From contig JAEWSC010000045.1 in assembly GCA_023398575.1 (NCBI GenBank), forward strand, positions 37,436 to 61,435: a stretch of 24,000 nt of DNA, given 5' to 3'. Made by a program: the position numbers and the translations under genes. This DNA comes from Bacillota bacterium (GTDB taxonomy: Bacteria > Bacillota > Clostridia > Christensenellales > Aristaeellaceae). Below are positions 13,849 through 15,342 of this stretch, piece by piece. Below the pieces are notes generated by a model. That model had not been told where the DNA came from, made no database searches, and saw only the letters and a list, made by a program, of their open reading frames with translations. The number at the start of each line of letters is the position of its first letter. The stretch's first letter is position 1.

Positions 13849-15063
13849 TTGGCAAAGCCATCTTGCTGCGGCGGCGCGCCTGATGCCAAAGAGGAAAAAA
13901 TACGGTATGGCAAATTGATTGGAACGGTCAGCGTGCAGAGCAGACTCAAAGCGCCTGCAAGGACTTCCATCTGCTGCGGAGCCGGGCGCAAGCATTCACC
14001 CGGGCAGGCCTGTAACGCCAGCAGCAAAAAGATACAGGAACCCTGGGTGCTTGGGCCTATCGATACGCCCGCCGGCATCGTTCCGCGCGTCAAAACGCAG
14101 CTTTCGATCAAGGACCGGCTTGGCTCATTTAAATGCAGGTGGAATATTGGCCGCATGGATTACAAGGTTGATCCAGGGTTGTTTTGCGTGGGTACGCCAG
14201 ATGACCAATCCCCGGTTCTTGTGACCGCCAATTACAAAATGACGTTTGACCGCGTGCGCAGCGAGCTAGGCGGCATAAGCGCCTGGATCGTTGTGCTGGA
14301 TACAGATGGCATCAACGTTTGGTGCGCTGCCGGCAAGGGCACCTTTGGAACAAAAGAACTGGTACACAGAATTTCCGCAACAAAGCTTGCCAAGGTGGTT
14401 TCCCACCGCACAGTGATCGTGCCGCAGCTGGGCGCAACGGGCATCGCCGCACATGAGGTGTTAACACAATCGGGCTTTAAAGTTGCCTATGGCCCTGTTC
14501 GCGCCGAGGACCTGAAAGCCTATCTTCATGCTGGAATGGTTGCCACCAAAAGAATGCGGACCGTAAAATTTACGATGCTGGACCGGCTGGTGCTCACGCC
14601 CATGGAGCTTGTTTTCGCCATCAAGCCGCTGATGCTTGCCTTTGGCGCAATGTTCATTCTCAACACCATCGGGTTGGGGCAGTATGGGCTTGCCGATTTG
14701 ATTGCGCTGCTGGGCGCGGTCATCACAGGCTGTATCGCAGCCCCGGTTCTGCTGCCCTTTCTACCCGGCCGGGCGTTTTCTTTCAAGGGCTTTGTGCTGG
14801 GGCTGCTCTTTGCGGTGGCCATAAACGTTTGGCAGGGCTTTGCGAACATGCAGGCATTCGGCTTTTTGAAGGCAGCGGCCTATTTTCTTTTGATACCATC
14901 CATCTCATCGTTCCTTATGATGAACTTTACGGGCAGCTCCACCTATACATCGCTGTCAGGCGTGGATAAGGAAATGAAGATTGCGCTTCCCGCCATCATT
15001 CTTTCCGCCGGGGCAGGCGTCATTCTATTGCTTGTCAGCGGCTTTGTTAAGGTCACGGGGTGA
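13849..15063 (+). CDS. hgcA: HgcA-type corrinoid protein with a C-terminal transmembrane domain (mercury methylation). The start is uncertain: TTG 13849 is preferred, with GTG 13840 and ATG 13786 as alternatives.
   Basis: PWVLGPIDTPAGIVPRV...IGRMDYKVDPGLFCVGTPDDQSPVLVTANYKMTFDRVRSELGGISAWIVVLDTDGINVWCAAGKGTFGT matches the HgcA corrinoid domain. It includes the diagnostic N(V/I)WCA(A/G)GK cap-helix motif (Cys codon 14323-14325). About five hydrophobic helices follow. AGGAGGGGG lies upstream of TTG 13849. Confidence 0.85.
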   Translation: MAKPSCCGGAPDAKEEKIRYGKLIGTVSVQSRLKAPARTSICCGAGRKHSPGQACNASSKKIQEPWVLGPIDTPAGIVPRVKTQLSIKDRLGSFKCRWNIGRMDYKVDPGLFCVGTPDDQSPVLVTANYKMTFDRVRSELGGISAWIVVLDTDGINVWCAAGKGTFGTKELVHRISATKLAKVVSHRTVIVPQLGATGIAAHEVLTQSGFKVAYGPVRAEDLKAYLHAGMVATKRMRTVKFTMLDRLVLTPMELVFAIKPLMLAFGAMFILNTIGLGQYGLADLIALLGAVITGCIAAPVLLPFLPGRAFSFKGFVLGLLFAVAINVWQGFANMQAFGFLKAAAYFLLIPSISSFLMMNFTGSSTYTSLSGVDKEMKIALPAIILSAGAGVILLLVSGFVKVTG

Positions 15064-15078
15064 GAAGGAGCGATGAGC

Positions 15079-15342
15079 ATGAAGTATTTAAAGAATGTAG
15101 CCACCCTCAAGCATGATTTTCAAAAGTGCACAGGCTGCGGCGCATGCCTGAACGTATGCCCTCATGGGGTGTTTGAGCCTTATCAAAAAAAGGTGCGCAT
15201 CACCGATCTTGACCTTTGCATGGAATGCGGCGCATGCAAAAAAAACTGTCCGTTTGAAGCCATTCAGGTGCAAAAGGGCGTAGGCTGCGCCGCCGCAATA
15301 CTCTCCAGTTTGCTGACAGGCAGCGAACCCAAATGCTGTTGA
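15079..15342 (+). CDS. hgcB: HgcB-type 2x[4Fe-4S] ferredoxin.
   Basis: AAGGAG (15065-15070) lies 8 nt before the ATG at 15079; the ATG at 15073 is too close to the SD. The motifs are CTGCGACLNVCP, CMECGACKKNCP, an additional Cys in GVGCAAA, and a C-terminal KCC (15334-15339). The gene starts 15 nt after the hgcA stop. Confidence 0.85.
   Translation: MKYLKNVATLKHDFQKCTGCGACLNVCPHGVFEPYQKKVRITDLDLCMECGACKKNCPFEAIQVQKGVGCAAAILSSLLTGSEPKCC

Follow-up and report, generated by a model that had tools for sequence, protein, structure and literature searches.

The window analysed here, a 24,000-nucleotide stretch of contig JAEWSC010000045.1 (positions 37,436 to 61,435), carries a two-gene locus that is virtually certain to be a genuine and intact hgcA-hgcB pair, the genes for the corrinoid methyltransferase HgcA and the ferredoxin HgcB of the mercury-methylation system. 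The gene pair is ordinary, and its regulatory context is the more useful product of the analysis: hgcA is preceded by the gene for a MarR-family regulator with a cysteine triad and by a conserved palindrome, and in other genomes the same arrangement holds arsM in place of hgcAB. The features of the pair, with lengths and residues given in amino acids (aa), are as follows.

13849-15063, + strand: hgcA, corrinoid methyltransferase of the mercury-methylation pair, 404 aa, TTG start
13849-14040, + strand: Cys-rich tail of HgcA, aa 1-64, with Cys6-Cys7 (PSCCGG), Cys42-Cys43 and Cys55, predicted to be disordered
14314-14337, + strand: cap-helix motif NVWCAAGK, aa 156-163, in which Cys159 (TGC, 14323-14325) is the predicted cobalt thiolate ligand
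14575-15057, + strand: transmembrane domain of HgcA, five helices at aa 243-273, 281-300, 310-328, 339-363 and 369-403 (AlphaFold2 and DSSP)
15079-15342, + strand: hgcB, 2x[4Fe-4S] ferredoxin, 87 aa (89 aa from the alternative ATG 15073)

An earlier note, made from the sequence of the window alone, had proposed an HgcA/HgcB pair from an open reading frame (ORF) at 13786/13849-15063 containing the cap-motif peptide, about five hydrophobic helices following the soluble domain, and an ORF of 87-89 aa beginning 15 nucleotides (nt) further downstream with two CX2CX2CX3CP clusters, a Cys in GVGCAAA and a KCC end. All of these features are present at the positions given there, and the proposed identity is borne out by curated profile hidden Markov models (HMMs). 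The HgcA equivalog model NF040863 scores the hgcA product at 465.6 bits (cut-off 275; E = 8e-140) over model positions 1-324 of 325, and the HgcB equivalog model NF040864 scores the hgcB product at 121.2 bits (cut-off 99; E = 1e-35), so that a chance match is ruled far out for the pair. The ORF containing hgcA spans 13786-15063 on the + strand, and TTG 13849 is taken as the functional start because AGGAGG lies 10 nt 5' of it, the database protein P0001 (404 aa) is 100% identical to the window HgcA from this residue on, and HgcA homologs share the same N-terminus, M-A-K-x-S-C-C-G-G. At least 7,998 relatives of HgcA are found at E<=1e-10, and hgcB adjoins hgcA in 77 of 80 related genome loci.

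The cap-helix motif was examined by alignment. Cys159 is invariant across 66 aligned homologs. A phmmer search of HgcA against PDB sequences returned 2h9a, 4c1n and 4djd, corrinoid iron-sulfur protein (CFeSP) large subunits in which only the C-terminal corrinoid domain aligns. In this alignment DTDGINVWCAAGKGTF of HgcA pairs with DTDGTSVLTAWAAGKF of 2h9a_A, which places Cys159, the Cys of WCAAGK, on Thr374, and the cap segment also agrees with that of M. luminyensis printed in PMC4646819. An HgcA-specific cobalt-ligating Cys (Cys93 in ND132) is reported to replace the CFeSP residue at the cap-helix position (PMC7305189). The membrane domain is predicted by two approaches. An AlphaFold2 model built with 66 homologs (predicted local distance difference test score, pLDDT, 82; predicted template modelling score 0.73) shows a disordered tail at aa 1-56, where pLDDT is below 50, an alpha/beta domain at aa 66-237 and then five long helices; Kyte-Doolittle hydropathy gives five hydrophobic peaks at aa 247-396, in agreement with the modelled helices at aa 243-403. 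The top Foldseek match in the PDB library is 9a0b_A, a published in silico model of HgcA from ND132 (43% identity across 329 columns, which cover all 329 target residues; E = 1.4e-22), followed by the CFeSP corrinoid domains 2ycl, 2h9a and 4djd at probability 1.00. Sequence search and Foldseek found no experimental HgcA structure in the PDB libraries, and 9a0b was the only HgcA entry they returned. HgcA thus combines a passing model score, the corrinoid domain, the cap motif and five helices with a separate hgcB downstream.

For hgcB, ATG 15079 is the preferred start, 8 nt after AAGGAG and 15 nt after the hgcA stop codon. Pfam recognizes Fer4 domains in the product, and its two CX2CX2CX3CP motifs are CTGCGACLNVCP and CMECGACKKNCP, encoded at 15127-15162 and 15217-15252. 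In 87-aa numbering, the extra Cys in GVGCAAA is Cys70 (codon 15286-15288), located 13 residues past Cys57, the last Cys of the second cluster motif, and the terminal KCC ends in Cys86-Cys87, the last two residues of the protein (codons 15334-15339). The same 13-residue spacing separates Cys60 from Cys73 in ND132 HgcB (PMC7305189). Among 78 HgcB relatives the extra Cys is present in 66 and a C-terminal Cys in 76. Model score, both cluster motifs, the extra Cys and the C-terminal Cys coincide in one protein.

The same two-gene layout is known from ND132 (Pseudodesulfovibrio mercurii, also Desulfovibrio desulfuricans; DND132_1056/1057) and from Geobacter sulfurreducens (GSU1440/1441). In all three systems the corrinoid domain of HgcA contains the Cys of N(V/I)WCA(A/G)GK and five transmembrane helices come after it, while HgcB ends in Cys-Cys and has two CX2CX2CX3CP motifs with another Cys 13 residues beyond them. 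Aligned by structure, the window HgcA and the ND132 model match over the full length, at an identity of only about 43%. Differences lie at the edges of the pair: the window unit has a MarR-family regulator upstream where the other two systems have an ArsR-family regulator, and unlike them it continues downstream of hgcB with a GNAT acetyltransferase gene of ArsN1-like type. A further difference is the N-terminal tail of HgcA, whose Cys-Cys pairs (PSCCGG, ICCGAG) stand against a PCUGP selenocysteine site reported for ND132 and G. sulfurreducens.

The tail, residues 1-64, falls outside the HgcA HMM. A comparable tail occurs in 110 of 118 close homologs with the cap motif (median 58 aa), its mean Cys content in these 110 relatives is 11%, with 1% outside the tail, and of the 122 HgcA relatives listed 96 begin with M-x(1-5)-CC. 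N-terminal extensions with CC motifs have been described for some HgcA proteins, and for the HgcA of ND132, of Geobacter and of 18 further homologs the reading frame can be followed upstream across a UGA as far as a conserved PCUGP selenocysteine site (Haft & Gwadz, bioRxiv 10.1101/2022.07.06.499078). The window tail with PSCCGG is the all-cysteine counterpart of that site, and binding of Hg(II) by the tail cysteines is plausible. The Cys-rich tail was considered as a novelty and rejected as such, the CC extensions being already contained in the same report.

The catalytic steps proposed for the window proteins are transferred from experiments with the ND132 enzyme. HgcB, through its two [4Fe-4S] clusters, would reduce cobalamin on the cytoplasmic domain of membrane-anchored HgcA to Co(I). 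S-adenosylmethionine (SAM) would then donate a methyl group to Co(I), giving methyl-Co(III) in which the Cys159 thiolate is the axial ligand, and this methyl group would be passed to Hg(II) to give CH3Hg+. The thiols that present Hg(II) would be those of Cys70 and the C-terminal Cys-Cys in HgcB, to which the tail of HgcA might add its Cys-Cys pairs. With purified ND132 HgcAB, SAM has been found to be the methyl donor, Co-S ligation has been observed and HgcB has been identified as the reductant (PMC11588087); ND132 is also the only source of HgcAB for which SAM-dependent Hg(II) methylation has been demonstrated (PMC11588087). Cys73 and Cys94/95 of ND132 HgcB are required for activity (PMC11588087; PMC7305189), and their counterparts in the window are Cys70 and Cys86/87. 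The account as a whole, including the mechanism carried over from ND132, is considered very probable, and the host is a candidate methylmercury producer.

The regulatory features upstream of hgcA are the following.

13325-13356, + strand: predicted promoter and operator, with the palindrome CTGTTGCA-TTT-TGCAACAG at 13325-13343, -35-like TTGCAT at 13328-13333 and -10 TATGAT at 13351-13356
13374-13814, + strand: MarR-family regulator gene, 146 aa (Pfam MarR PF01047, 51.5 bits)

The regulator has a MarR-type winged helix, with 44 solved MarR relatives. Immediately N-terminal to the winged helix it carries Cys30-Cys31-x6-Cys38-His39, and it ends in Cys145-Cys146. Among 28 MarR orthologs adjacent to hgcA, Cys30, Cys31 and Cys38 are kept in 27, 26 and 26, respectively, and the two terminal Cys positions in 19 and 15. 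The subfamily is small, with about 110 clusters in 5.8 billion proteins; CC-x6-C is present in 88 of 110 members and the C-terminal CC in 66. In ArsR variants, As(III) is usually bound by a vicinal Cys pair together with a third Cys; because the triad resembles such a site, the MarR protein is probably a thiol-based metal(loid)-sensing repressor. For Dethiobacter alkaliphilus and Geobacter daltonii, a single sentence in PMC10349881 notes MarR genes 5' of hgcA. In the literature searched, no description of the Cys-triad subfamily with its palindrome was found beyond that passing mention, and a Cys-triad MarR regulator of hgcAB appears to be undescribed so far.

The palindrome at 13325-13343 is perfect and lies 46 nt 5' of marR; its left arm holds the -35-like TTGCAT, which is separated from TATGAT by a spacer of 17 nt. 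The promoter was called by manual reading together with conservation across loci. With the consensus palindrome defined as GTTGCA-N3-TGCAAC and its core as TTGCA-N3-TGCAA, the core has 11 exact matches in 843 kb of related loci against about 0.8 expected by chance. Ten of the 11 sit 40-60 nt 5' of marR or, in locus L060, where marR is located after hgcB, 5' of hgcA. In all ten of ten independently sampled regulator loci a TAcAAT box comes after the same palindrome or a one-mismatch variant, which lies at -47 to -56, except that in L091 the palindrome stands at -20 of a probably over-extended gene call. Loci with the MarR subfamily or the palindrome are L001-L003, L011, L016, L017, L019, L027, L034, L060, L083, L085 and L087-L094. 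Two of these carry the operator in two tandem copies 16 nt apart, L089 at about 4945-4975 (TTGCATAATACAA twice) and L094 at about 3945-3975. From this arrangement the MarR protein would be expected to bind the palindrome. It would repress a single marR-hgcA-hgcB-GNAT transcription unit whose promoter is overlapped by the palindrome, and binding of a thiophilic metal(loid) to Cys30/Cys31/Cys38, with As(III) or an organoarsenical as the likeliest effector, would lift the repression. This regulator model is given a little better than an even chance of being correct.

The cargo of the regulator was surveyed in ten further loci found via the regulator itself, with the following genes directly 3' of marR.

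L085, L087, L090: GNAT gene only
L083 (C. carboxidivorans P7), L091, L092: arsM and then the GNAT gene (NF008823, 296-305 bits, cut-off 263)
L088, L089, L093: hgcA-hgcB (HgcA model, 447-478 bits)
L094: small methyltransferase gene, with hgcAB about 1 kb upstream

In L083 (3191-6801 of ACVI01000087.1), L091 (2413-5860) and L092 (4001-5778), arsM fills the slot between MarR and the ArsN1-like GNAT that hgcAB occupies in the window, and the same GNAT follows the MarR subfamily in L083, L085, L087, L090, L091 and L092. The varied cargo in these ten loci therefore defines a conserved frame, marR-[nothing / arsM / hgcAB]-GNAT, which usually lies beside arsR, arsP, trx and acr3. The C. carboxidivorans P7 cassette illustrates the correspondence: its Cys-triad MarR is orthologous (55% identity), the operator occupies the same position, an ArsN1-like GNAT lies downstream, and arsR, trx, arsP and acr3 are nearby as in the window. 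Its cargo, in place of a membrane corrinoid/ferredoxin pair, is a class-I SAM methyltransferase of the soluble type (NF008823, 297.8 bits, cut-off 263); ArsM and HgcAB share no common sequence or fold.

Two of the surveyed loci show further peculiarities. In L094, the 200 nt 5' of hgcA (735-935) encode the C-terminal end of a subfamily MarR (..QVLESLEILV..PGQCCQ..), an apparent remnant, and an intact marR followed by the small methyltransferase gene lies 2 kb downstream (4001-5079); together, the remnant and the intact copy suggest a rearrangement of the cassette. In L093, a gene for a pyridine-nucleotide disulfide oxidoreductase (6148-7524) is located directly 3' of hgcB and is followed by arsR, trx and arsP. 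This oxidoreductase matches CoA-disulfide reductase best (350 bits, cut-off 579) and MerA more weakly (156 bits).

In the window, the marR-hgcAB unit follows an ars operon, and the neighbouring features are listed below.

9962-10279, + strand: arsR, ArsR/SmtB metalloregulator, first gene of the ars operon (NF033788, 78.1 bits, cut-off 55; Pfam HTH_5)
10402-11322, + strand: ArsP_1-family permease, the family of the methylarsenite efflux permease (Pfam PF03773, 220 bits)
11348-11692, + strand: MTH895/ArsE-family thioredoxin-like protein (TIGR00412, 94.6 bits, cut-off 62)
11747-12793, + strand: acr3, arsenite efflux transporter (TIGR00832, 390.8 bits, cut-off 282.8)
12786-13205, + strand: arsC-like arsenate reductase of the low-molecular-weight phosphatase type (Pfam LMWPc, 72.4 bits; arsenate reductase models below their cut-offs)
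13236-13258, + strand: intrinsic terminator with a stem of 8 G-C pairs, a 7-nt loop and TTTTT, which ends the ars operon and parts it from the marR-hgcAB unit
15383-15883, + strand: GNAT N-acetyltransferase related to arsinothricin/phosphinothricin acetyltransferases, last gene of the unit

Every gene from 9962 to 15883 is on the + strand. In the arsR product the canonical position of the As(III) site is occupied by a C-T-C pair (..GGEKCTCVLIEAL..), and 5' of its gene lie a terminator-like hairpin (9820-9843) and a promoter-like TTGACA-17-TAGGAT (9896-9924). Downstream of the ars operon, the gaps are 34 nt between marR and hgcA, 15 nt between hgcA and hgcB and 40 nt between hgcB and the GNAT gene, with a ribosome-binding site at each; no convincing terminator was seen between these four genes. 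Because a strong terminator precedes marR and the gaps are short and equipped with ribosome-binding sites, marR, hgcA, hgcB and the GNAT gene are read as a probable single unit. The GNAT scores 135.3 bits with the ArsN1a model NF040503 (cut-off 170) and 69.4 bits with that of family B (cut-off 210), and by these scores it is a relative of ArsN1 and not a confirmed member. Rfam and tRNA scans of the window returned nothing, and no cobalamin riboswitch was found near hgcAB; the GC profile of the window (0.47-0.56 throughout) shows no compositional island.

The order arsR-arsP-trx-acr3…marR-hgcA-hgcB-GNAT is kept as a whole in locus L001, which holds one of the nearest HgcA copies found and whose proteins are 64-82% identical to those of the window. 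Across the 80 hgcAB loci, ACR3 or arsC genes are near hgcA in about one quarter and ArsR or MarR genes are adjacent in most, and at many loci ars genes were not seen. Linkage of hgcAB to arsenic genes has already been published (PMC7438021; PMC10349881; bioRxiv 10.1101/2022.10.17.512643), and it was accordingly rejected as a novelty of the window. The closest regulatory parallel is the ArsR-hgcAB regulon of ND132 (Gionfriddo et al., bioRxiv 10.1101/2022.10.17.512643; AEM 2023), in which a gene for a small metal(loid)-type repressor likewise lies directly 5' of hgcA and is apparently co-transcribed with it; arsenic-responsive control of hgcAB by this ArsR has been shown. Both systems are tied genomically and regulatorily to arsenic resistance genes. 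They differ in the regulator, which has a MarR fold in the window and an ArsR/SmtB fold in ND132, and the window protein has its own Cys30/Cys31/Cys38 triad and GTTGCA-N3-TGCAAC operator.

Several points weigh against or limit the reading given above. The cap motif is not helical in the cofactor-free AlphaFold2 model, where its pLDDT is 74-81, a result that is not counted as negative. The consensus promoter scanner missed the marR promoter, whose -35 element agrees with TTGACA at three of six positions. Sensing of oxidation, or binding of Hg(II), Cu(I) or Zn(II), would be equally possible functions of the CC-x6-CH arrangement in the regulator. In the species-representative genomes scanned, no same-species genome with the window HgcA was found, and the nearest copies (59-65% identity) come from metagenome-assembled genomes (MAGs) labelled Oscillospiraceae, Bacillota, Clostridiales and Feifaniaceae; by this resemblance the host is probably an uncultured Clostridia bacterium near Oscillospiraceae and other Bacillota MAGs. 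The window lies on a metagenome scaffold of 295 kb (ENA ERZ28597669, LEMO22-1_SAMN17215495 scaffold_18; also in Logan SRR13358389), and a full-text search with the sample accessions turned up no paper. Finally, the presence of hgcAB is no guarantee of measurable methylation, and the fused paralog of P. furiosus made no methylmercury in culture (PMC4646819).

The alternative that survives best accepts the proteins as HgcAB by descent and assigns their true job to arsenic or organoarsenical metabolism, as a cobalamin-dependent metal(loid) methylase that replaces ArsM and methylates mercury in a side reaction. The position of hgcAB between the ars operon and the ArsN1-like GNAT speaks for it, as do the three loci, including that of C. 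carboxidivorans P7, in which the same MarR, operator and GNAT frame holds arsM and not hgcAB, the quarter of the 80 loci with ACR3 or arsC near hgcA and the adjacent ArsR or MarR genes in most of them. SAM is moreover the methyl donor of both HgcAB and ArsM (PMC11588087), and the arsenic response of hgcAB mediated by ArsR has been demonstrated in ND132 (bioRxiv 10.1101/2022.10.17.512643). However, a common substrate cannot be concluded from co-regulation, many hgcAB loci are without ars genes, and the frames with the GNAT alone show that the core partner of the regulator is the GNAT and not a methylase; no report of arsenic methylation by HgcAB was found in the literature searched. On balance this alternative is unlikely. 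Its narrower form, that HgcAB replaces ArsM with a metalloid as the native substrate, is doubtful. A similar degree of doubt attaches to the view of hgcAB as interchangeable cargo of the Cys-triad MarR regulon, an ArsM counterpart induced by arsenic or organoarsenicals that acts on a metalloid and yields methylmercury as a by-product.

A second alternative retains HgcAB as the mercury-methylation system and holds that the intact genes are silent or non-functional in this host, for example through a missing corrinoid supply or permanent repression. The TTG start of hgcA is weak, expression of HgcAB is very low even in model methylators (PMC11588087), and 24 kb of sequence cannot show cobalamin supply. 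Against this, frameshifts and premature stops are absent and all residues known as essential are kept. Because gene order is conserved in L001 with proteins 64-82% identical, purifying selection is indicated, and silent genes are quite improbable.

The possibility that the genes encode a non-methylating HgcAB-like paralog of the fused Pyrococcus furiosus type was weighed with competing curated HMM scores, which serve as a proxy for a phylogeny of HgcA against fused HgcAB-like proteins and CFeSP. The HgcAB-like fusion model NF043039 does match both proteins, which are homologous to the fused family over the corrinoid and ferredoxin parts, at 198.4 bits for HgcA and 55.5 bits for HgcB. Both scores are far under the model cut-off of 285 and under the 465.6 bits of the HgcA model, and the genes are unfused: a stop codon and 15 nt divide the two ORFs. 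Scores from published profile searches likewise set the fused proteins apart from true HgcAB (PMC4646819). The paralog is thus very improbable. Of the refuting outcomes named in the earlier note, those open to computation (a cap segment that fails to align, grouping with non-methylating paralogs, a missing membrane domain) were all decided in favour of HgcA.

A Wood-Ljungdahl CFeSP subunit with an accessory ferredoxin, as older annotations of relatives would have it, draws on a generic CdhD corrinoid domain as the only Pfam match of HgcA (PF03599, 55.7 bits), on CFeSP large subunits as the closest solved crystal structures and on one relative called 'acetyl-CoA synthase subunit gamma' in the public record, but it is refuted by domain architecture and has next to no probability: the CdhE/CFeSP model NF003195 gives 77.1 bits against a cut-off of 306 over model positions 321-445 of 450 only, the alignment is limited to about 125 residues of the C-terminal corrinoid domain, HgcA is without the N-terminal [4Fe-4S] or TIM-barrel domain, has Cys159 for Thr374 and adds the five-helix membrane domain, and profile scans of the window found no acs or cdh genes. 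What HgcA shares with the CFeSP large subunit (AcsC/CdhE; 2h9a, 2ycl, 4djd) is the Rossmann-like corrinoid-binding domain, at 24-26% identity and a root-mean-square deviation of 3.2-3.5 A, and the methyl donor differs, being SAM for HgcA and methyl-tetrahydrofolate for CFeSP (PMC11588087). Annotation of such genes bears on another claim of the earlier note, that generic pipelines tend to overlook the system. This is partly outdated: some older records read 'hypothetical' or 'acetyl-CoA synthase subunit gamma', but NCBI now has dedicated HgcA and HgcB models and newer names say HgcA.

Further observations concern the rest of the window and other hgcAB loci. The ArsP_1 permease (10402-11322) also matches the NCBIfam model SaoE below threshold (103.9 bits against 325); SaoE is the efflux model of a 'selenocysteine-assisted organometallic' system tied to HgcA (Haft & Gwadz, bioRxiv 10.1101/2022.07.06.499078). 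A ChrA chromate transporter gene with two Chromate_transp domains (6504-7694, 209.8 bits) lies 2 kb 5' of the ars operon, with a GH31 glycosidase gene (7788-9791) between them, and a PadR-family gene just 5' of chrA is seen in L081 (202-480). The region therefore gathers several metal(loid)-resistance functions. Convergent with the hgcAB unit is the gene of an HtrA/trypsin-like serine protease of 674-706 aa (15985-18105, - strand), whose long Pro/Thr/Ala-rich linkers and Fn3-like repeats form an architecture unusual for the DegP type. Two long ORFs without a Pfam or NCBIfam match (18953-20215 and 20323-21450) come after an extracytoplasmic function (ECF) sigma factor gene (18376-18933); their products may be an anti-sigma factor and a partner protein from an unknown family. 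At its left end the window has the gene of a histidine kinase with DUF4118 and GAF domains (1769-3379, - strand) and those of a LytTR-domain regulator and then a DUF3021 membrane protein (5083-6044), all with no relation to hgcAB. Elsewhere, the cultured Acetivibrio mesophilus N2K1 (NZ_RLII01000001.1) has two hgcAB loci about 107 kb apart on one contig, L043 at about 166 kb and L047 at about 273 kb. Each has arsR upstream and arsC downstream of hgcAB, and L047 also has a MarR homolog.

Pairs of hgcAB are common in uncultured Clostridia and are known in thousands of anaerobes. The window pair adds one uncultured Clostridia lineage to the likely methylmercury producers, which is useful for environmental risk inventories and unsurprising. 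Why microbes keep hgcAB and what switches these genes on are long-standing open questions, and the sole regulator tested so far for control of hgcAB is of ArsR type, in a single Desulfovibrio-like model. The Cys-triad MarR is tied to hgcAB in about one third of the sampled Clostridia-type loci and to arsM in cultured Clostridium species. Its context offers a definite way to test what controls hgcAB and why cells keep it, and could reveal whether methylmercury formation by fermentative anaerobes is governed by exposure to arsenic.

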